A stretch of DNA of 19,453 bases from a virus (lineage: Duplodnaviria; Heunggongvirae; Uroviricota; Caudoviricetes). The stretch lies in the IMG/VR virus record IMGVR_UViG_2675903433_000028, positions 1-19,453 of that record; one strand, given 5' to 3'. The notes beneath the pieces were generated by a model that saw only the letters and a program-made list of their open reading frames with translations, ran no database searches and was not told where the DNA came from. Position 1 is the first letter of the stretch, and each line of letters opens with the position of its first letter. This document shows, in pieces, positions 9,432 through 19,163 of this stretch. A program made the translations under genes and the position numbers.

Positions 9432-10313
9432 TCAGCGTCCTGAATCGGTATACCCCCATACAAAACCAGGTTGGACACTAAGGTCTGATAGCTTTTCAAT
9501 CCCCACCTGTGGAATGAAGTCGGTAGCCCGAAAGGGCACCCACAGACGGGTATACGCACCCTCTGTGGACTCCTTTGTATCCTGGTTTGGGCATTTGTGC
9601 GACGGGAGACGAAGACGCATTTCGCCTTTATCGATGTAGCACGGTAAACCATGTTCGAGCTTTTCATGAGCCAGCCGGATGTGTGCCGCCAGCTTCATAA
9701 ATTCAGTATCAATGGCCATCCGTTTGATCGTTTCATAACGACGCTCAGCCTGCTCTTCACGAGTACCGCTAACATCGTTATAAAGTTCACACTGATAAGC
9801 GAATTCCCAAAAACGCAAATCAACGATCGCTTCTTTGAATTCCGCGTCGTCTTCAGGTGGTAATGCTGCACGGCGCATCTCCAGCATTTCCATTGCCCAA
9901 CCATCAAGCGGCACGATACGCCATTGATAAGGCACTCCCTCTACAGACACCTCAATATCGTCAATGAACGGTTCCACTTCCAGGACCTGGATATCTTCAG
10001 CCAGAGCATTCATATCGCAATCGTAATAATGCTCTTTACCGCAATGTTTACAGGTGTAGGTGAATGTCTCGACCGGTGTTTCACGGGAGCCGGTAAATAT
10101 CCACCATAACGCGGTAATCCGGTCCTGCGCCGTCCATGTCAGGGGATCATGTTTCGCGGGTTCAGCCAGCAAGGCTTTTAAATACGCCGTTGTCTGTTGT
10201 TCTTGTTCCTCCGGTGTTATCGAGTTGAAACGCATCGCATCAGCAATATTTGGCTGACGGAACTGGATCAATTCAGTTGGCCGCGATGGTAGCGGGAAAA
10301 GAGGTAAAAGCAT
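9432..10313 (-). CDS. Acidic 293-aa protein directly upstream of the tape measure gene; candidate tail assembly chaperone
   Basis: Strong AAGGAG Shine-Dalgarno 7 nt before the ATG at 10313. The protein is Asp/Glu-rich and sits where G/GT chaperones are found. Assignment is positional. Confidence 0.4.
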   Translation of the reverse strand: MLLPLFPLPSRPTELIQFRQPNIADAMRFNSITPEEQEQQTTAYLKALLAEPAKHDPLTWTAQDRITALWWIFTGSRETPVETFTYTCKHCGKEHYYDCDMNALAEDIQVLEVEPFIDDIEVSVEGVPYQWRIVPLDGWAMEMLEMRRAALPPEDDAEFKEAIVDLRFWEFAYQCELYNDVSGTREEQAERRYETIKRMAIDTEFMKLAAHIRLAHEKLEHGLPCYIDKGEMRLRLPSHKCPNQDTKESTEGAYTRLWVPFRATDFIPQVGIEKLSDLSVQPGFVWGYTDSGR

Positions 10314-11558: not shown

Positions 11559-11710
11559 AGTCATTTGTCCATTGAGTGGGAATATTGCCGTCCGGGAGTA
11601 ATATGGTATCATTAAGTTAGAGTAGGTAGTGTAGATGGAATGAGGAGTATCATATGGTTATCACACAATCAGGTTGCTTTGAGTCAGGTTGTTTTGAGTA
11701 AAACAATAAA

Positions 11711-11737
11711 ACGCCCTTTAATGGGCGTATTTTTTTT
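11711..11737. terminator. Intrinsic terminator (bidirectional type) between the tail operon and the AT-rich membrane protein gene
   Basis: acgccc-tttaat-gggcgt is followed by attttttttt on the plus strand and preceded by an A-rich run, giving a U-tract on the minus strand as well. Confidence 0.6.
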
Positions 11738-11747
11738 AGGATTTAAA

Positions 11748-12641
11748 ATGCATTCTTTACAGAAATACATAAAACATAAATATACTCACTTAACTTTTTT
11801 TCTCTCATTACTTTTTTTCATGATATTTGAATCTCGAGAAGATATTATCAAGAAAATATTATCTTTTTCTCTCGATGAAGTTTTACCATTCTTAATGTTT
11901 GCGTTCTTCTCCGCCTTTATCAGCATAACAATAAAGGAAAAGATAGCAAAAAAATACCCAGAAACAAACGATGGGATTACCATTATCGCTTTAATCTTTG
12001 GTGTAACACTATATAGTGTATTTATATTATATTATTTATATGGTGATGTATACCAATCCACAATTGCTTTACTTATAAGTTCTGTGCTACTTGGCTCTGG
12101 GTGGTGGGTTCAGGCTACTGTGAGTAAAGTAGCCGCAAGAAAATCACACACCTTAAATACACTAATGAATCAAAGAAACAGTGAATTATTTCACAAAAAA
12201 GTCTCATCGGTAGCGAATACGTTCGGGCTTAGAAAAACCATAAATGAAATTATTGCCAAACAAAGACTTATCCCAAATGATAAAGATTTAAAAAATAAAA
12301 AGGTCCATGATAAATACATATCAGCAGGTAATGATATGTTCTTCGTTCTTAATTATTATGAGTTTATCTGTTCAGGAATAATAAATGGAGACTTTGATGA
12401 AGATTCAATGAGAGAATGTCTTGGACAAATTGTTCCGGGTCTCGAGGTTAGAGCATTTCATTTTATAAGAATTGCAAGAGAAATTTCAGGGAGTAGCTGC
12501 TTCTGTAATTTTGTTGCTGTTTCAGATAAATGGTCTACTAATGGAGGATCTCTTATTCTCAGACACGAGAAAGGAGAACCTGTGATCAATAACCTGACCC
12601 ATTGCTTTGAAGAAACAGCCTGTTATAACACAACATCTTAA
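11748..12641 (+). CDS. AT-rich membrane protein: N-terminal ~4 transmembrane helices plus ~170-aa soluble C-terminal domain; function unknown (candidate superinfection-exclusion or abortive-infection type moron)
   Basis: The ORF-track ORF begins at 11640 but reads through the terminator hairpin. The ATG at 11748 has an AGGA Shine-Dalgarno 8 nt upstream and is taken as the start (MHSLQKYIKHKYTHLTFFLSLLFFMIF...). Hydrophobic segments are obvious in the first ~130 aa. Composition is visibly AT-rich compared with the tail genes. Confidence 0.6.
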   Translation: MHSLQKYIKHKYTHLTFFLSLLFFMIFESREDIIKKILSFSLDEVLPFLMFAFFSAFISITIKEKIAKKYPETNDGITIIALIFGVTLYSVFILYYLYGDVYQSTIALLISSVLLGSGWWVQATVSKVAARKSHTLNTLMNQRNSELFHKKVSSVANTFGLRKTINEIIAKQRLIPNDKDLKNKKVHDKYISAGNDMFFVLNYYEFICSGIINGDFDEDSMRECLGQIVPGLEVRAFHFIRIAREISGSSCFCNFVAVSDKWSTNGGSLILRHEKGEPVINNLTHCFEETACYNTTS

Positions 12642-12647
12642 TATTTT

Positions 12648-12674
12648 GTAACCCATAATCGCTTTATGGGTTAC
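12648..12674. terminator. Hairpin between convergent genes (9-bp stem), probable terminator
   Basis: gtaacccat-aatcgcttt-atgggttac; the flanking U-tract is only moderate. Confidence 0.4.
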
Positions 12675-12692
12675 GTTAAATTTGCAATAAAA

Positions 12693-13169
12693 TTAATCGC
12701 CGCGCTTTAAGCATCCATCGTTTTTAGCTTGTTGATATAACTTACTTAGCCCAGAAAGAGGAAATGTAGCAATTTTTTCATTATCAACATAAGCATCTAT
12801 CGCATTAGCATTTGAATCTGCTGCATCTTGCCAAAAGGCATACCACCAAGAATCTCCAACCATTGACCCAAGATTGCTAAAAGGGTATTGCTCACCATCT
12901 AGTGTTAATACTATTTTACTCTTGTCAGCATTATACTCTTTTTTATTATTCGACGACCTTAGCAACAGGCCTAAACTACCTGCACTATCTGGTGATCCAT
13001 ACATGAAACCCATATCACATAAAAAACTTATCTTATCACCATTTTGATTATGGATTGTATATTCTCTCCCCCCTCTATCTTCAATTACATTCCATTGTAG
13101 AGGATCAATTTTTGCAAATACTCCTGCTGAAATTAACGATACAAATAATAAAAACCATCTCATATTCAT
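12693..13169 (-). CDS. Secreted/periplasmic protein, 158 aa, with N-terminal signal peptide; function unknown
   Basis: N-terminus MNMRWFLLFVSLISAGVFA-KID resembles a cleavable signal peptide. There is no lipobox Cys and no C-terminal aromatic residue, so it is not an obvious Lom/Ail barrel or lipoprotein. AT-rich. Confidence 0.6.
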   Translation of the reverse strand: MNMRWFLLFVSLISAGVFAKIDPLQWNVIEDRGGREYTIHNQNGDKISFLCDMGFMYGSPDSAGSLGLLLRSSNNKKEYNADKSKIVLTLDGEQYPFSNLGSMVGDSWWYAFWQDAADSNANAIDAYVDNEKIATFPLSGLSKLYQQAKNDGCLKRGD

Positions 13170-13191
13170 TTTTCTCGCTTCTTATCTGTAA

Positions 13192-13542
13192 TTATTCTGC
13201 AATATCATTTGCCCATTGCACGGCAGCAAAATGAGTGCCAAGGCCACTCAGGAAAGCAATTATTCCCAAAACAATACTAGCTGCTGTTGATTCAAACAAA
13301 GCACCAATGCTATAGCCAATAGCTCCCCATACTAAGCTAAAGACAATCATCAATGGTATTGCCAGAAATTTTATTCTTAAACTAAAAATCAGTCCAAGAA
13401 ATGAACCACCAAAGGCCCACCATGATTTAGACATTAAACCTATCAGTATTGACAGAATTCCTATTTCAATAAAGAGAATATTAGATTGCTCTTCATTGAA
13501 TTTCGCATTTGTTACACCTTTACGAACATGTTCAGATGACAT
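13192..13542 (-). CDS. Small inner-membrane protein, 116 aa, 3-4 predicted TM helices; co-transcribed with the downstream secreted protein gene
   Basis: GGAG Shine-Dalgarno before the ATG at 13542. The sequence is largely hydrophobic (ILFIEIGILSILIGL..., FLAIPLMIVFSLVWGAIGYSIGALF..., IVLGIIAFLSGLG). There is a 22-bp gap to the next gene. Confidence 0.6.
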   Translation of the reverse strand: MSSEHVRKGVTNAKFNEEQSNILFIEIGILSILIGLMSKSWWAFGGSFLGLIFSLRIKFLAIPLMIVFSLVWGAIGYSIGALFESTAASIVLGIIAFLSGLGTHFAAVQWANDIAE

Positions 13543-13688
13543 GATTAACTATCTCCAGCCACAGATAAAACGCCTTAAAATAACATGTTGTAGCACAAAG
13601 TTTCACCATGCAATGGTCAAAGTCTTTGATCCATATCAATTAGAGTTATACATTTTAGTTGCATAGCTAATAATTTATACGGCCGCAA

Positions 13689-13701
13689 ATTGCTCTAATT
13701 A
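13689..13701 (+). promoter_or_regulatory. Copy 1 of a recurring intergenic motif ATTGCTCTAAT(T/A)A
   Basis: attgctctaatta; the same core occurs at 15380-15393 and 17145-17160, always in plus orientation and upstream of a plus-strand gene. Confidence 0.4.
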
Positions 13702-13795
13702 TTTTGTTTTTTTTAGTTTCATATGCTACATTAACTCGCTTGCGTGCTAATGCATTTTCGGTTTATCCTAAACAAGCATCTTAGTAAAACGGATG

Positions 13796-13854
13796 CCGGG
13801 ATTGGAACCCCGGATAATGCAAAAGGCGACACAGACGCCAAAAGCGTCTTTTTT
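13796..13854 (+). ncRNA. Possible small RNA or leader element: hairpin followed by an intrinsic terminator, with no upstream plus-strand ORF
   Basis: Hairpin ccggg-attggaac-cccgg (13796-13813), then agacgc-caaaa-gcgtct + TTTTT (13833-13854). The nearest upstream genes are on the opposite strand. Confidence 0.35.
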
Positions 13855-13903
13855 ATGTCATGCCATCGCACAACCATACGTAGCACATAGCTACGAGATC
13901 AAT

Positions 13904-13979
13904 GGTAGTGCTGGCTGGGCTGCCAAAAGGCAGGCCGGTTCCCTTTTGCGCCGGTAGTTCCAACCCAGTCAGTGCTACC
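13904..13979 (+). promoter_or_regulatory. Long RNA stem-loop in the leader of the antirepressor operon (16-bp stem; plus-strand specific because of three G-U pairs)
   Basis: ggtagtgctggctggg (13904-13919) pairs with cccagtcagtgctacc (13964-13979): 13 Watson-Crick plus 3 G-U pairs on the plus-strand RNA, which would be C-A mismatches on the minus strand. The loop contains an inner hairpin caaaagg/ccttttg. Confidence 0.5.
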
Positions 13980-14039
13980 GCCATTGAGATTGGAACCTCA
14001 CGCGGTAGCTCCTTAAATTAGCAAAAGGAGGCTGCCAAT

Positions 14040-14261
14040 ATGGCTACTATCCCTACCCCAACTCATTCTGAATTCATCTGGCGCTTTTACTCCTGCCAGA
14101 AACGTCACTATCACTTCGTTATTGCACCGACAGAAGATGAGGCCCGCTCTCAGCTTCCTGACGCCCCATGTATTTTCTCTGCCCGTTTTTCCACTGATTC
14201 ACGCAATTCTCTCAGTTACTGGTGCCTCCCTGTTAACGCTTCTGCTCAGGAGGGACTATGA
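14040..14261 (+). CDS. 73-aa hypothetical protein, translationally coupled to the downstream antirepressor
   Basis: Strong Shine-Dalgarno (AAGGAGG) 8 nt upstream of the ATG. The stop overlaps the next start (ATGA at 14258-14261). An anti-Shine-Dalgarno segment ctcctt (14009-14014) can pair with aaggag (14025-14030). Confidence 0.55.
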   Translation: MATIPTPTHSEFIWRFYSCQKRHYHFVIAPTEDEARSQLPDAPCIFSARFSTDSRNSLSYWCLPVNASAQEGL

Positions 14262-15301
14262 GAACGTCATTAGTCACCCGTGAAGAAATGATTGAGGCAA
14301 TTGAACAGCACACAGCCTGTATGCCGACACGGGAGATCCCCGGCGCAATTGCCAACTATTTCATGATAACCAGGCGTTTTTATACCCGAACAGATAAGGC
14401 AGTGATCAACAGGCTACTGATAGCCGAGATCAGGGATTATTTGATTGAACAAGGACGTCTACGTTACGCAACGGTGGCAGCAGAAATGAGAAAGGAGGCA
14501 CATAGAGTGACCGGTAAAAATTTGAATGTTGAGAAACCAGCACCTGTTACGTCAGCTACGCCAACACCAGCCGTGAATGTCATCCCCAACACCGGAGACA
14601 CAATCGACAGCCAAACATTGTTGAAGATGGTCAATGAGGCACGCAAGTTATGTGGAGAACCAGAGGTTAGAAACAATAAATTCATCGAAAAAATACTCGA
14701 TGAACTTGAAGGTGAATTTTACACAAAAAGTGCAAAATCCCATGGCACAAGGGCTGGGCGCTCTTTTGAGGTCATCACCATGACCTACAAACAAGCCTTG
14801 CGAGTCGCCGCGCGCGAGTCAAAAGCGGTCCGCCGTTCGCTGATCGACAAACTGGAAGAATTGCAGCAGGCAAACTCCCCTGCCCCATCGATCCCCCAAA
14901 CATTACCAGAAGCTCTACGCCTGGCTGCCGAGTTGGCAGAACAGAAAATGCAGTTGGAACAACAGCTGGTGGCCGCAGCCCCTAAAGTCGATTTTGCCGA
15001 CCGGGTATCAGCGGCTAATGGAATCCTGATCGGGAACTTTGCAAAGGTTGTTGGGCTTAAGCAAAACGCGTTGTTTGCCTGGTTACGGGAGAACGGCATC
15101 CTGATAGCGTCCGGTGGACGTAAAAATGTGCCGTTCCAGCAATACATCAACGCCGGGTATTTCACGGTGAAAGAAGTGGTGCTGGATGATGAAAATGGCT
15201 ACCAGATACGGCTGACGCCCCAATTAACGGGTAAAGGCCAGCAGTGGTTAACTCGCAAGCTACTTGATGCTGGTTTGTTAAAACCAGTAGCAATAGGTTA
15301 A
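14258..15301 (+). CDS. Phage antirepressor-like protein with C-terminal KilAC/Ant-type domain (347 aa)
   Basis: The C-terminal ~130 aa (PKVDFADRVSAANGILIGNFAKVVGL...GYFTVKEVVLDDENGYQIRLTPQLTGKGQQWLTRKLLDAG) look like KilA-C/antirepressor domains and are clearly paralogous to the C-terminus of the next gene. Confidence 0.65.
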   Translation: MRTSLVTREEMIEAIEQHTACMPTREIPGAIANYFMITRRFYTRTDKAVINRLLIAEIRDYLIEQGRLRYATVAAEMRKEAHRVTGKNLNVEKPAPVTSATPTPAVNVIPNTGDTIDSQTLLKMVNEARKLCGEPEVRNNKFIEKILDELEGEFYTKSAKSHGTRAGRSFEVITMTYKQALRVAARESKAVRRSLIDKLEELQQANSPAPSIPQTLPEALRLAAELAEQKMQLEQQLVAAAPKVDFADRVSAANGILIGNFAKVVGLKQNALFAWLRENGILIASGGRKNVPFQQYINAGYFTVKEVVLDDENGYQIRLTPQLTGKGQQWLTRKLLDAGLLKPVAIG

Positions 15302-15304
15302 CAA

Positions 15305-15339
15305 AAGAAAAAAACCTGCCAGCAAACTGGCAGGTTTCT
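15305..15339. terminator. Hairpin terminator between the two antirepressor genes; U-tract is stronger on the minus strand
   Basis: aaaaaaa-cctgccag-caaa-ctggcagg-tttctg. Read on the minus strand the hairpin is followed by TTTTTTTCTTTT; on the plus strand only by TTTCTG. Confidence 0.55.
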
Positions 15340-15379
15340 GAGCAGATCGTCCAACCCGATCTGGATCGAGTCAGAAAAA

Positions 15380-15393
15380 TTTGCTCTAATAAA
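15380..15393 (+). promoter_or_regulatory. Copy 2 of motif TTGCTCTAAT(T/A)A, about 75 bp upstream of the second antirepressor gene
   Basis: tttgctctaataaa. Confidence 0.4.
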
Positions 15394-15465
15394 TTTCGTT
15401 TTCTAAGTGCAAAGAATCACCATTTCGAGCTGGTGATTGAAGGTTGATGCAAATTTGGAGAAAAA

Positions 15466-16266
15466 ATGCAACAAACATTCAATGCGGATATGAATATATC
15501 AAACCTTCATCAAAATGTCGATCCTTCAACCACTCTGCCCGTTATTTGTGGTGTTGAAATTACGACCGACCGCGCTGGCCGTTACAACCTTAATGCTCTA
15601 CACAGAGCGAGCGGACTCGGTGCCCATAAAGCGCCAGCTCAATGGCTAAGAACGCTGTCAGCTAAACAGCTCATCGAAGAGCTTGAAAAAGAAACTATGC
15701 AGAATTGCATAGTTTCGTTCGAAGGCCGTGGCGGCGGCACTTTTGCCCATGAATTGCTCGCAGTGGAGTACGCTGGTTGGATTTCTCCTGCGTTTCGGCT
15801 GAAGGTAAACCAGACATTTATCGACTATCGAGCTGGAAGATTACAACCTGCTATTCCGCAGAGTCTCCCAGAAGCTCTCCGTTTGGCTGCCGACCTGGCA
15901 GAGCAAAAGCAACGGCTGGAGCAAAAAATGCTGATGGATGCACCTAAAGTCGAATTCGCCGAACGCGTTGCTACCGCCAGCGGGGTTCTAATCGGCAACT
16001 ATGCCAAAGTGCTCGGCCTGGGCCAAAACTATCTCTTCACCTGGTTGCGTGATAACGGAATTCTGATCGCAACCGGTGAACGCAGGAACGTCCCCAAACA
16101 AGAATACATATCCCGTGGGTATTTCACCCTTAAAGAAACCGTGATCGATACAAGCAATGGAAGCAGGATTTCTTTCACGACTCGTATAACCGGCAAAGGT
16201 CAGCAGTGGCTGATGAAGCGATTGCTTGATGCTGGTGTGCTGGTACCTGTCGCGGCTACGCGCTAA
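15466..16266 (+). CDS. Phage antirepressor with N-terminal KilA-N (APSES-type DNA-binding) domain and C-terminal KilAC domain (266 aa)
   Basis: GGAG Shine-Dalgarno 7 nt upstream. The N-terminal region (LPVICGVEITTDRAGRYNLNALHRASGLG...AQWLR...GRGGGTFAHELLAVEYAGWISPAF) looks like KilA-N. The C-terminal half aligns by eye with the preceding gene (PQSLPEALRLAADLAEQK...GKGQQWLMKRLLDAGVL). Confidence 0.7.
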   Translation: MQQTFNADMNISNLHQNVDPSTTLPVICGVEITTDRAGRYNLNALHRASGLGAHKAPAQWLRTLSAKQLIEELEKETMQNCIVSFEGRGGGTFAHELLAVEYAGWISPAFRLKVNQTFIDYRAGRLQPAIPQSLPEALRLAADLAEQKQRLEQKMLMDAPKVEFAERVATASGVLIGNYAKVLGLGQNYLFTWLRDNGILIATGERRNVPKQEYISRGYFTLKETVIDTSNGSRISFTTRITGKGQQWLMKRLLDAGVLVPVAATR

Positions 16267-16284
16267 CAGACGTAGTAAGAACCA

Positions 16285-16302
16285 CCAGCATTGTAATGCT
16301 GG
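16285..16302 (+). promoter_or_regulatory. Stem-loop overlapping the first ATG of the following ORF
   Basis: ccagcat-tgta-atgctgg; the 3' arm contains the ATG at 16296. Confidence 0.4.
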
Positions 16303-17141
16303 CTAAAGTCACTTTCCTGAGCTGTATAACGATGAGCGATTTTACTTTTTCTGGCTATGAATTGGCCTGCTTTGTAACACACTCCGGTCTATCCCGTAGC
16401 GCCGGGCATATCCTGTCGCAATGTGCAAATCTCGCGGCAACAACCAGTGAATACTTCATTCACAAGCCTCACCGCCTGATCGCGGCAGAAACTGGTTATA
16501 GCCAATCAACCGTCGTTCGTGCATTCCGTGAAGCTGTAAACAAAGGAATTCTGTCTGTAGAGATTGTTATCGGCGATCACCGTGAACGTCGCGCTAACCT
16601 GTACCGGTTTACACCATCCTTTTTGGCCTTCGCACAACAAGCCAAAAATGCGCTGATTGAAAGCAAATTAAAGATCTCTTCAGCCGCAACCAAGGTTAAA
16701 ACTGTTCTCGCTAAGACATTGGCTTTATTTAATTTTTTATCCACACCCCCATGTCAAAATGATACCCCCTCCCCCTGTCAGGATGACGTGGCAATAAAGA
16801 ATAAGAAGTCACAAGTTAAAAAAACAAAAAGATCAGTTTCCGACGGTGCCGGAACGACCAGCCTCAAAAAACTGACTTCATGGATCGCTGAAGCAAAAGC
16901 AAAGGCTGACAATCTGCGGTTATCCAAAAAACGCGCTCAAAAACATGAGTTCAAGCAGAAAGTAGAGGCGGCAGCGCGGAAATATGCTTACCTGAAGAAC
17001 AAGCGTTCTCCTGATATTGGCTGGATATCAAACTTCGATAATCTACCGCATTGCATGACGGTAAACGAAGCTCTTAATGCGGTATTAGCCAAAAATAAAG
17101 ATAACGAACAATGGGGTATACCGGTAGGATTCAGAGGGTGA
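16296..17141 (+). CDS. Hypothetical DNA-binding protein with a helix-turn-helix-like segment and a Lys-rich C-terminal half (start uncertain: 16296 or 16332)
   Basis: Segment ...AAETGYSQSTVVRAFREAVNKGIL... resembles an HTH. The C-terminus is basic and K-rich. Neither candidate ATG has a good Shine-Dalgarno. Confidence 0.45.
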   Translation: MLAKVTFLSCITMSDFTFSGYELACFVTHSGLSRSAGHILSQCANLAATTSEYFIHKPHRLIAAETGYSQSTVVRAFREAVNKGILSVEIVIGDHRERRANLYRFTPSFLAFAQQAKNALIESKLKISSAATKVKTVLAKTLALFNFLSTPPCQNDTPSPCQDDVAIKNKKSQVKKTKRSVSDGAGTTSLKKLTSWIAEAKAKADNLRLSKKRAQKHEFKQKVEAAARKYAYLKNKRSPDIGWISNFDNLPHCMTVNEALNAVLAKNKDNEQWGIPVGFRG

Positions 17142-17144
17142 TAG

Positions 17145-17160
17145 ATTGCTCTAATTATAA
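17145..17160 (+). promoter_or_regulatory. Copy 3 of motif ATTGCTCTAATTA, about 150 bp upstream of the DUF3800-like gene
   Basis: attgctctaattataa, immediately after the stop codon at 17139-17141. Confidence 0.4.
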
Positions 17161-17309
17161 CCATGCATACTTTCAACACCTCTAGTTTGCCATGAGGAAA
17201 ACTCATAGGCGTCCTGGTAAGATGACGTAGTTAGCAAATCAGAACGTCCAATTATTGCAATTAATAAACAACTAACGGACAATTCTACCTAACAATAAGT
17301 GGAGTTAAC

Positions 17310-18014
17310 ATGTTGAACCGAAGAACATTTAATGTATTCTGCGATGAATCCTGTCACCTACTAAATGATCATAATAAAGTCATGGTATTGGGTGCGCTTT
17401 GGTGTCCTGGCACTATCACAAAAAAAATTGCTAGAGACATCAAGGGATTAAAATTAAAACACAATTTAAAACCTGATTTCGAAATCAAGTGGACTAAAGT
17501 ATCTGCGTCCAAAGTTGAATTTTACTTAGAGGTCGTAGATTACTTCTTCAGCAACCCAGCATTGCGCTTTAGAGGTGTTGTTGTTCCTGATAAAGAGCAA
17601 CTGGACCATGCTCGATTCCATCAAGATCATAATACTTTCTATTATAAGATGTTTTTTTATGTCTTAAAAAACATAATAGAAAGTAACAACACATACAATA
17701 TCTACCTAGATATAAAAGATACTTTAGGTATTGAAAAAATTGAGAAATTAAGAGGAGTTCTTCACAATGATCGCTATGATTACAATCATGAGTCGATAAA
17801 CAGAATTCAACATATACGATCTCATGAAGTGCAACAATTGCAGCTAACGGATCTTTTCATTGGTGCGTTAGGCTACGTTCATCGAGGAATGAATAGCAAC
17901 GCGGGAAAAATCCAAGTCATAAACAGGATAAAATCACATACAAACAGGGAGTTACTAAAAAGCACTCTTCCAACAGAAAGTAAATTTAATATTTTCGTGT
18001 GGGAGGCTCGCTGA
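17310..18014 (+). CDS. DUF3800-like protein (234 aa), function unknown
   Basis: GGAG Shine-Dalgarno 5 nt upstream. The N-terminal FCDESCHL and C-terminal QLQLTDLFIGALGY motifs match my recollection of the DUF3800 family (conserved Asp/Glu near the N-terminus, Q-L-x-D-L near the C-terminus). The gene is AT-rich. Confidence 0.5.
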   Translation: MLNRRTFNVFCDESCHLLNDHNKVMVLGALWCPGTITKKIARDIKGLKLKHNLKPDFEIKWTKVSASKVEFYLEVVDYFFSNPALRFRGVVVPDKEQLDHARFHQDHNTFYYKMFFYVLKNIIESNNTYNIYLDIKDTLGIEKIEKLRGVLHNDRYDYNHESINRIQHIRSHEVQQLQLTDLFIGALGYVHRGMNSNAGKIQVINRIKSHTNRELLKSTLPTESKFNIFVWEAR

Positions 18015-18289
18015 TGCTTCAAATGCCAGATTTATTGTACTTCAATGGAAGTTGGCAAGAGTATATAGACGATGTATATGATGTTGTTAGAGAAGATATT
18101 TTAATCTCTAATATAACGTTTAAGGGTCTCCCTGTTCGATTACGTTATTCACCGGAATATGATGGGAAAGAGTTCGGATTTTGGCATTTAGTATCAGAGG
18201 GAAAAATAGAAGAAGAACGAATACCTGATCTTCAAGAAACAGCCCGTATACGGGCTGTTTTAACAGATATCTACAGTAAGCGGTCCTAA
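18014..18289 (+). CDS. 91-aa hypothetical protein, translationally coupled partner of the DUF3800-like gene
   Basis: The ATG at 18014 overlaps the upstream TGA (TGATG), with a GGGAGG Shine-Dalgarno 7 nt upstream. The ORF-track start at 17999 is a GTG inside the upstream gene. Confidence 0.5.
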   Translation: MLQMPDLLYFNGSWQEYIDDVYDVVREDILISNITFKGLPVRLRYSPEYDGKEFGFWHLVSEGKIEEERIPDLQETARIRAVLTDIYSKRS

Positions 18290-18344: not shown

Positions 18345-19163
18345 TCAAGCGATACGGGCAACCGAGCTCTGGTTTGCTGCCGGTGGCAGGGCGATGAGCT
18401 TGTCACATTCCATAATCACGTACTCCGGGATGAGATCGAATCTGGACGGATCCAGTTGACAGATGAACTCATTTTCAATGTGGTACGTTTCGTTAACGAA
18501 TTTTCGTATTACCGGATGGTCCTGATCCAGTTCCAGTAAACGGAATACCTGCAGTTTTTCATATCCGTTACGACAGCGACGGTACAGGTTTTTTATTTCA
18601 TCTGGGCTGCTGACGAGAGCCTGAAGTCGCGGGTAATCAAAACTGTCCACATACTCCCGGATATCCCGCAAGGCCTGCTGAATTTTCTCAGGAGCCATTT
18701 TGGGGTAGCCCGTGCCCGCAGCGGCAGGCTCGCGATAATCCAGCGGGGCGACGCGTCGATGGAATAGATTGGATAGAAGCTGATAAGCATCACCACGTTC
18801 GTCAACGATTTCAAAGTAGCGACGAAGATAGATGAGCTTAATGATCTCCTCACAGTCTGCTGACGCGGTGATGGATTTGCAGATCTGCATGAATGTCATG
18901 ATATCGCCGTCGTTAACAGGTAATTCTTCTATGACTCCAGCAGACAGGCGCAGGCAGGAGGCGGTCACCTGATTACTGAACAACCTTCTGACTGACTTCA
19001 GCGTGTCAATCACAGGCTCCACGTCATGCGTCAGCATAGTGCTGATGCTGACGGATGTTACAAAAAATGCAGCGTATGGCGTTGAGATAGAAAGTCTGGT
19101 GCTGGAGATAAATACACCTACATCATGATAAAAAAGGGCCAGCGACTGACCTGAAGAAGACAC
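18345..19163 (-). CDS. Hypothetical protein (231-272 aa; N-terminus uncertain), convergent with the DUF3800 cassette
   Basis: Long ORF with ordinary composition. The ORF-track start at 19163 is a GTG and the first ~40 residues look non-protein-like. The first ATG is at 19037 (MLTHDVEPVID...) but lacks a Shine-Dalgarno. No motif recognised. Confidence 0.45.
   Translation of the reverse strand: MSSSGQSLALFYHDVGVFISSTRLSISTPYAAFFVTSVSISTMLTHDVEPVIDTLKSVRRLFSNQVTASCLRLSAGVIEELPVNDGDIMTFMQICKSITASADCEEIIKLIYLRRYFEIVDERGDAYQLLSNLFHRRVAPLDYREPAAAGTGYPKMAPEKIQQALRDIREYVDSFDYPRLQALVSSPDEIKNLYRRCRNGYEKLQVFRLLELDQDHPVIRKFVNETYHIENEFICQLDPSRFDLIPEYVIMECDKLIALPPAANQSSVARIA

Follow-up and report, generated by a model that had tools for sequence, protein, structure and literature searches.

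Three copies of a recurring motif in a P1-like phage-plasmid match operators of the immunity repressor C1

The window analysed here, a 19,453-nt stretch of a tailed-virus genome, is part of a P1-like phage-plasmid, and the motif that recurs three times in its intergenic DNA almost certainly represents operators of the C1 immunity repressor, homologous to the P1 sites Oc4/Op51, OrepL/Op53 and Orlf/Op55. The earlier note on this DNA had suggested a shared operator that places the downstream genes in one regulon; annotated C1 operators and the literature point to the P1 immunity regulon as that regulon (PMC8546580, PMC9948254). The finding is correct and ordinary, in that the motif is a long-known C1 binding site at catalogued positions. 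The operator consensus and the three sites reportedly date from late-1980s work on P1.

Results

Identity to both P1 and P7 is 94-96% over 14070-17400 (BLAST), and homology assigns the stretch to the immI-kilA-repL region of P1-like phage-plasmids (Table 1). RepL homologues at 92-100% identity are encoded in 80 loci, and the family-wide counts below come from a motif search and alignment of the loci around them. A Pfam search with RepL returned no match at 1e-3; in relatives the protein is automatically annotated as 'MarR family transcriptional regulator' or 'helix-turn-helix domain-containing'. The first ~75 of the 91 residues of the truncated rlfB product match P1 RlfB, which has 154. The isrK-like leader RNA ends in an intrinsic terminator (13833-13849, then a T run; terminator scan), and homology to phage D6 begins at its start, 13776. 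We do not regard the isrK match as a novelty: the leader of P1 gives c4-a1b1 plus a sub-threshold isrK match in the same place, so the match is the known immI leader. No c1 gene was found within the 19.4-kb window. In the P1 record c1 lies ~45 kb from the immI-kilA-repL region, the 98%-identical complete relative pO26_EH031_1 encodes a 'phage repressor protein C1', and, judging from such relatives, the source element probably carries c1 as well.

Table 1. Features of the immI-kilA-repL region and its flanks, in window coordinates
Feature	Position	Strand	Basis
C1 operator corresponding in position to P1 Oc4 (former Op51), ATTGCTCTAATTATTTT (copy 1)	13689..13705	+	24.2 bits, two differences from consensus, P1 position
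Putative sigma-70 promoter resembling P1 P2c4 (P51a), TTGTTT-N17-TACATT	13704..13732	+	Sequence reading, P1 geometry
Putative second promoter resembling P1 P1c4 (P51b), TTGCGT-N18-TATCCT	13740..13769	+	Sequence reading, P1-like spacing
isrK-like leader RNA	13776..13854	+	Rfam RF01394, 58.5 bits (gathering score 50)
C4 antisense RNA gene (immI)	13898..13985	+	Rfam RF01695, 76.2 bits, E=1.2e-13
icd, cell-division inhibitor, leader ORF of ant	14040..14261	+	~95% nucleotide identity to P1 icd
ant1, antirepressor of C1	14258..15301	+	Pfam ANT/KilAC, E=1.6e-31; P1 annotation
ant2, in-frame within ant1	start near 14507	+	Homology with P1
Promoter P53 (PkilA), TGGATC-N17-TCTAAT	15362..15390	+	Both hexamers as in P1 PkilA
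C1 operator OrepL (former Op53), TTTGCTCTAATAAATTT (copy 2)	15380..15396	+	Identical to P1 site; 21.8 bits
kilA	15466..16266	+	Pfam KilA-N and ANT; P1 annotation
Antisense promoter P53as (PaskilA), TCGACA-N17-TATATT	15493..15521	-	Promoter scan; annotated P1 PaskilA position
repL, lytic replication initiator, oriL inside gene	16296..17141	+	P1 annotation
C1 operator Orlf (former Op55), ATTGCTCTAATTATAAC (copy 3)	17145..17161	+	Identical to P1 site
Mosaic junction	17155..17156		Alignment A2; BLAST matches end at 17155
Predicted promoter PrlfA, TTGCAA-N17-GACAAT	17255..17283	+	Transferred from 'predicted' feature of P1 record
rlfA (DUF3800)	17310..18014	+	99% amino-acid identity to P1 RlfA; Pfam DUF3800
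rlfB, truncated	18014..18289	+	BLASTP 91% identity over 82 aa, then divergence and stop

As had been claimed, the three copies share one strand and lie outside plausible genes. They start 351 nt (icd, 14040), 86 nt (kilA, 15466) and 165 nt (rlfA, 17310) before the next start codon, which bears out the distances of 85-350 bp given earlier, and copy 3 begins 4 nt past the repL stop codon. The string common to all three, TTGCTCTAATWA, occurs three times against 0.01 expected, a count found in none of 200 shuffles. As an exact 11-mer, ATTGCTCTAAT occurs only at 13689 and 17145 (0.01 expected; 0 of 200 shuffles reach two), and the middle copy reads TTTGCTCTAAT, one mismatch away. A chance repeat in AT-rich intergenic DNA could draw on the relaxed counts, as the 11-mer at one mismatch or fewer gives three sites against 0.66 expected, which 6 of 200 shuffles reach and which is weak evidence alone, and at two or fewer it is unenriched (10 sites, 7.5 expected). 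The TTGCTCTAATWA count, the matrix ranking, the synteny with annotated P1 operators and the conservation in 80 loci nevertheless refute a chance origin, to which we assign a negligible probability, in agreement with the earlier judgement.

The degenerate core WWTGCWCTAAT tells the same story. It has three matches in the window against 0.06 expected, all intergenic, with no further match on either strand of the 19.4 kb; the coding DNA of the window, where a comparable density had been named as one of the observations that would speak against a regulatory role, does not contain it, and each of its 15 matches in P1 is an annotated operator. The full 17-bp sites differ from the P1 consensus ATTGCTCTAATAAATTT at two (copy 1), one (copy 2) and five (copy 3) positions. 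When the window was scanned with a weight matrix derived from 16 P1 operators other than the three homologous sites, the copies ranked first to third at 24.2, 21.8 and 16.3 bits; the 16 operators behind the matrix themselves score 15.7-27.5 bits, and the best score per shuffled window has a mean of 11.3 and a 95th percentile of 15.5 bits. A possible divergent partner site 40 bp to the left of Op51 (13633-13649, minus strand, ATAACTCTAATTGATAT) was rejected, as its 11.3 bits equal the null mean and its core is not kept in window-type relatives (reverse complement ATGAGTTTAAT in loci L004, L034 and others). A fourth candidate (12156-12172, plus strand, AATACACTAATGAATCA), at a borderline 16.0 bits within the DUF4760 gene, is probably a chance match; its conservation was seen in a 98%-identical relative only, which is uninformative.

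The P1 RefSeq record NC_005856 carries protein_bind features, labelled 'phage repressor C1', for Oc4/Op51, OrepL/Op53 and Orlf/Op55 at the homologous positions, with the same genes in the same order and on the same strand, and the 17 bp of copies 2 and 3 are base-for-base those of P1. The motif search in relatives that the earlier note had called for places the core at three syntenic sites only across the 80 RepL loci, always on the gene strand. In P7, RCS47, SJ46, pO26_EH031_1 and pNADC1036IncYphage the same three cores flank the immI-kilA-repL block. The consensus has 19 matches in pO26_EH031_1 against ~0.6 expected, of which 17 are intergenic or syntenic with P1 operators, and these matches include an exact window-type Op51. 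For P1, a consensus sequence and 22 dispersed C1 operators have been described, with C1 modulated by the corepressor Lxc and the antirepressors Coi and Ant1/2 (PMC8546580), and both C1 binding and in vivo repression at the operators have been reported (PMC8546580, PMC9948254). We infer that C1 also binds the three sites in the source element itself, where the repressor, encoded far away, would recognise its asymmetric 17-bp site at ~20 dispersed places.

Op51 lies where P1 has AATGCTCTAATAAATTT, and its core, TGCTCTAAT, is invariant in three lineages with unrelated left flanks (alignment A1). The -35 hexamer of the putative promoter P51a overlaps the 3' end of the operator, a geometry shared with the annotated P1 P2c4 and conserved in alignment A1; transcription from P51b would start near 13776, at the 5' end of the isrK-like RNA match. 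The immI operon comprises the leader RNA, C4 RNA, icd and ant1/ant2; C1 bound at Op51 would overlap the -35 of the operon's upstream promoter and so limit transcription of the repressor's own antagonist Ant, with C4 RNA as a probable additional block on icd and ant expression. The window differs from P1 on both sides of this operator: to its left, simABC is replaced by the DUF4760 gene and two small ORFs, and to its right the leader/C4 RNA module is D6-like.

The middle site had been assigned to the second antirepressor gene, and its position upstream of that gene is as described, but its main target is the kilA-repL lytic replicon. Op53 covers the -10 hexamer TCTAAT of P53, a promoter that differs from P1 PkilA by one spacer base and has Dam sites within and upstream of its -35. 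Of the 79 RepL loci whose upstream DNA reaches far enough, 77 have the exact Op53 core, the exceptions being L031 and L036 (G4 to A). In P1, Op53 overlaps P53 and represses kilA-repL (PMC9948254). By covering the same hexamer here, C1 would shut off the lytic replicon, so that in a lysogen kilA and repL would be off and lytic replication from oriL could not start.

The case for the DUF3800 cassette as a member of the regulon is mixed, since a core does stand at the P1 Orlf position, but the 3' half of the site is poor and the predicted PrlfA lies ~94 bp downstream. Op55 has a perfect 11-bp core and carries its five mismatches in the 3' half, exactly as P1 Op55 does, because of which its 16.3 bits are only marginally above the null 95th percentile. 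Of the 71 sequences in alignment A2, 67 keep this core exactly, and Op55 is absent from three RepL-bearing loci (92-93% RepL identity). In most of the P1-like relatives the core precedes an unrelated module, a small ORF and hokD, not rlfA-rlfB. The P1 record attaches a 'controls expression of' note to Op51 and Op53, which is absent for Op55. Op55 is most likely a weak or auxiliary C1 site, which might, as a roadblock, stop repL read-through before it enters the cargo downstream (rlfA-rlfB in this window) or might assist repression as a helper site; the putative C1 control of rlfA through Op55 is the weakest link of the regulon.

Discussion

An alternative reading takes the motif as a shared promoter element with TTGCTC as a -35 hexamer, not as a repressor site. 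The P1 record does annotate the TTGCTC of operators as the -35 of P1ban, PpmgR and P2pmgT, and TTGCTC-N16-TACTTT at copy 3 can be read as a weak promoter. However, the copies stand in differing relations to their promoters: copy 2 supplies the -10 of P53, copy 1 adjoins and overlaps a -35 from upstream, and copy 3 overlaps no known or annotated promoter. Moreover, 11-17 bp are conserved, far more than a hexamer, and the sites are documented C1 binding sites, which makes a shared promoter element very improbable. Even less credible is binding by the protein encoded at 16296-17141, which the earlier note had put forward as a helix-turn-helix candidate. The automatic labels of its relatives speak for this choice. 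Against it, the protein is RepL, an initiator of lytic replication whose site of action, oriL, lies within its own gene, and it lacks a Pfam DNA-binding match at 1e-3, whereas the motif recurs ~20 times across P1, at annotated C1 operators. The cognate repressor of the three operators is almost certainly C1, whose gene would lie outside the window.

Another possibility is that the Op55 core, and perhaps that of Op51, serves mainly as a module boundary or recombination linker for cargo exchange and not as a working operator. The rlfA-type downstream module and its majority counterpart ('CTGGAGTCACC', hok-linked) cease to be homologous exactly past ATTGCTCTAAT, with BLAST matches stopping at 17155, and the 5' edge of Op51 is where three left flanks unrelated to one another come together. 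Published work identifies simABC and rlfAB-pmgF as variable regions of P1-like phage-plasmids (PMC9603915). A modest new point is that operator cores stand on either side of the conserved immI-kilA-repL block, where they coincide with two published variable-region boundaries. Against a linker, Op53 sits within a near-invariant block without any junction, and at Op88, P1 and a relative whose cargo downstream differs stay homologous for >200 bp past the operator, for which reason we rejected operators as general recombination junctions. In addition, 11 bp is very short for homologous recombination, and the natural place of a regulatory site is either end of a module, so that coincidence with a junction is expected without any recombination role. 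We therefore consider a linker function unlikely, though less so than the alternatives above. Similarly doubtful is the idea that the Op55 core is a fixed C1-bound boundary that ends the repL block, with interchangeable cargo behind it, acting as a roadblock and, together with Op51, as a point of microhomology at which P1-like phage-plasmids may exchange modules; in that event Op55 may not be primarily the operator of the DUF3800 cassette.

As C1 operators, the three sites invite comparison with better-known modules. The repressor CI of lambda, with OR and OL, is likewise a prophage repressor that occludes early lytic promoters and maintains lysogeny. In lambda, dimers bind palindromic operators that cluster at two loci; the P1 operators, by contrast, are asymmetric 17-mers dispersed over ~20 sites. 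For the window leader, the isrK/C4-type immI modules of D6 and Gifsy-1 are close known systems, and the leader RNA, C4 RNA and icd are ~93% identical to those of phage D6. No match to a P1-type C1 operator was found upstream of the D6 immI module at three mismatches or fewer, and D6 was rejected as a distant operator-bearing relative; the window, in contrast to D6, carries a D6-like RNA module behind a P1-family operator and promoter.

For annotation, the operators show which part of a P1-like phage-plasmid the window represents, the immI-kilA-repL region, and the identity of RepL corrects the label of an 'HTH/MarR regulator'. In unannotated P1-like plasmids, a simple matrix finds C1 operators reliably. 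Another modest new point is that Op55 is tied less closely to the DUF3800 cassette than its name, Orlf, suggests. Were the Op55 core indeed a fixed boundary, which we consider unlikely, it could shield the cargo behind it (rlfAB, hok-linked genes and others) from the lytic replicon or couple the two under certain conditions.

Operator copies and their specificity

The earlier note described one 11-mer in three same-strand copies upstream of gene starts, and such a recurring motif is indeed present: the three copies all lie on the plus strand between genes, with the next start codons (14040, 15466 and 17310) 351, 86 and 165 nt further downstream, respectively, and the string common to them, TTGCTCTAATWA, occurs three times in the window versus 0.01 expected. 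The single 11-mer needs a small correction, as its first base varies. Only the plus-strand copies at 13689 and 17145 have the exact form ATTGCTCTAAT (two in the window versus 0.01 expected; none of 200 shuffles reached two), and the copy at 15380, TTTGCTCTAAT, has one mismatch to it. With up to one mismatch the enrichment is modest (three sites versus 0.66 expected; 6 of 200 shuffles reached three), and WWTGCWCTAAT is found three times versus 0.06 expected.

The three copies are Op51, Op53 and Op55, operators of the P1 immunity repressor C1, which is monomeric when bound to its asymmetric sites; they are a correct rediscovery, with nothing outside known biology. The P1 reference record annotates protein_bind features for 'phage repressor C1' at positions homologous to all three. 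Op53 and Op55 agree with their P1 counterparts at 17 of 17 bp, and Op51 reads ATTGCTCTAATTATTTT in the window versus AATGCTCTAATAAATTT in P1. The C1 operator consensus is an asymmetric 17-mer, ATTGCTCTAATAAATTT, with ~22 dispersed sites in the P1 genome (PMC8546580). When both window strands were scanned with a weight matrix made from 16 other operators of the P1 record (Op51, Op53 and Op55 left out), the copies ranked first to third, at 24.2 (Op51), 21.8 (Op53) and 16.3 bits (Op55), versus best scores in shuffled windows with a mean of 11.3 and a 95th percentile of 15.5 bits. The Op55 17-mer is only marginally above noise because its 3' half (TATAAC) is off consensus; its 11-bp core, the 5' part of the operator, is perfect. 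Inside the DUF4760 coding region, an operator-like AATACACTAATGAATCA (12156-12172, plus strand) scored 16.0 bits, about equal to Op55, and may be a chance match or a cryptic C1 site.

A similar motif density in coding DNA, which the earlier note had named as counting against a shared element, was not found, as judged from the following counts. In the P1 genome all 15 occurrences of WWTGCWCTAAT are annotated operators, and in 80 IMG/VR loci gathered around RepL homologues the core is seen only at the three syntenic positions, always on the gene strand. The complete plasmid pO26_EH031_1, which matches most of the window at 98% identity and encodes a 'phage repressor protein C1', has 19 consensus matches at up to three mismatches versus ~0.6 expected, 17 of them intergenic or syntenic with P1 operators, the exact window-type Op51 among these.

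Natural core variants also occur, namely G4 to A in Op53 (TTTACTCTAAT; 2585-2595 in two IMG/VR contigs, L031 and L036) and C5 to T in Op55 (ATTGTTCTAAT; 4350-4360 in one contig, L059). In addition, pO26_EH031_1 (L086, NZ_AP027163.1) carries at 8528-10205 a second, decayed immI copy adjoining c1, with icd, a frameshifted ant and an operator-like site, TTTGCTCTAATAAATTG, and at 5021-5037 an extra operator-like ATTGCTCTAATTATTTG between a c8-like gene and an integrase gene, where P1 has no annotated operator.

Transcription units and the extent of the regulon

Over 14070-17400 the window is 94-96% identical to P1, P7 and many P1-like phage-plasmids. Its rlfB encodes 91 aa versus 154 aa in P1, ~75 aa being P1-like before the sequence diverges, and homology to most relatives stops near 18235. 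The 'HTH protein' proposed earlier as a binder of the motif is the initiator of lytic replication, RepL, and its gene contains oriL.

Features of the window and the basis of their assignment
Feature	Position	Strand	Basis or remark
DUF4760 gene	likely true start 11749
Two small leftward ORFs	12693-13169, 13192-13542	-	without Pfam matches
Oc4 (formerly Op51)	13689-13705	+	P1-record name
First predicted promoter	13704-13732	+	TTGTTT-N17-TACATT
Second predicted promoter	13740-13769	+	TTGCGT-N18-TATCCT; position as P1 P1c4/P51b
isrK-like leader RNA with intrinsic terminator	13776-13854	+	Rfam, 58.5 bits
C4 antisense RNA	13898-13985	+	3' of isrK-like leader
icd	14040-14261	+	homology to P1
ant1/ant2	14258-15301	+	Pfam ANT
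P53	15362-15390	+	TGGATC-N17-TCTAAT
OrepL (formerly Op53)	15380-15396	+	P1-record name
kilA	15466-16266	+	Pfam KilA-N + ANT
P53as antisense promoter	15521-15493	-	present in window
repL	16296-17141	+	homology to P1
Orlf (formerly Op55)	17145-17161	+	P1-record name
Predicted rlfA promoter	17255-17283	+	TTGCAA-N17-GACAAT; transferred from P1-record 'predicted' feature
rlfA	17310-18014	+	Pfam DUF3800; 99% identity to P1 RlfA
rlfB (truncated)	18014-18289	+	91% identity over 82 aa to P1 RlfB
ORF	18345-19163	-	272 aa; next after rlfB; without Pfam match

Op51 overlaps the -35 hexamer of the first predicted promoter, in the geometry of P1 P2c4/P51a, and the predicted transcription start of the second (~13776) is where the leader RNA match begins; we infer these promoter positions from sequence and homology. 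In P1, P51b is active constitutively and so maintains C4 RNA in lysogens. The isrK-like RNA and its terminator follow the C1-controlled promoter and precede the C4 RNA, so that read-through would be needed for c4, icd and ant to be expressed. IsrK was described in Gifsy-1 (PMC4825925). The P1 leader has a c4-a1b1 Rfam match and a sub-threshold isrK match at the same place; the isrK match in the window therefore marks the known immI leader rather than a new element. The RNA module itself is not P1-like but resembles that of D6, a distant phage with a similar immI module, with ~93% identity in the leader, C4 and icd start (window 13776-14102). No P1-type operator was found upstream of the D6 immI module, and the window thus has a D6-like RNA module behind a P1-family operator and promoter.

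Op53 provides the -10 hexamer of P53, both hexamers of which are as in P1, and the Dam sites of the -35 region are retained. In P1, Op53 overlaps P53, and kilA-repL is thereby kept repressed by C1 in lysogens (PMC9948254). Between ant1/ant2 and P53/Op53 of the window, a strong bidirectional hairpin terminator with a 13-bp stem (15310-15339) divides the region into an immI and a kilA-repL transcription unit.

The proposal that the motif defines one regulon is supported for immI and kilA-repL; the DUF3800 cassette is a candidate member of the C1 regulon. Op55 begins 4 nt past the repL stop codon, and the sole promoter proposed for rlfA lies 94 bp downstream of it, a gap at which bound C1 would not occlude that promoter. 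The P1 record attaches a 'controls expression' note to Oc4 and OrepL but not to Orlf. Among relatives the Op55 core stays linked to the repL block rather than to rlfA, which weakens the claim of an rlfA operator. The terminator scan found no terminator-like site between repL and rlfA, so that read-through from P53 could reach the cassette.

Operators at mosaic edges

The 71 sequences aligned at Op55 have one of two downstream modules: an rlfA type, found in P1, the window and 13 loci, and a majority type, which starts CTGGAGTCACC and carries hokD together with a small ORF. In this alignment homology between the two types stops exactly at the 3' end of ATTGCTCTAAT (window 17155/17156), and the operator 3' half is off consensus in both. 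Three loci with a 92-93% RepL have no Op55. At Op51, the upstream DNA is unalignable among three lineages (window-type, P1-type and L032-type), which all share an invariant TGCTCTAAT and, after it, conserved promoter spacing; the left mosaic edge thus coincides with where Op51 begins.

Eight variable regions have been published for P1-like phage-plasmids, among them simABC and rlfAB-pmgF (PMC9603915). As the former lies left of Op51 and the latter right of Op55, operator cores flank the conserved immI-kilA-repL block on both sides, at its mosaic edges. In the window, the DUF4760 gene and the two small leftward ORFs (11640-13688) take the place of the superimmunity genes simABC of P1. That operators are mosaic edges in general was considered and rejected, since at Op88 the homology between P1 and pO26_EH031_1 runs >200 bp past the operator though the downstream cargo differs. 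Most simply, module ends are marked by regulatory sites.
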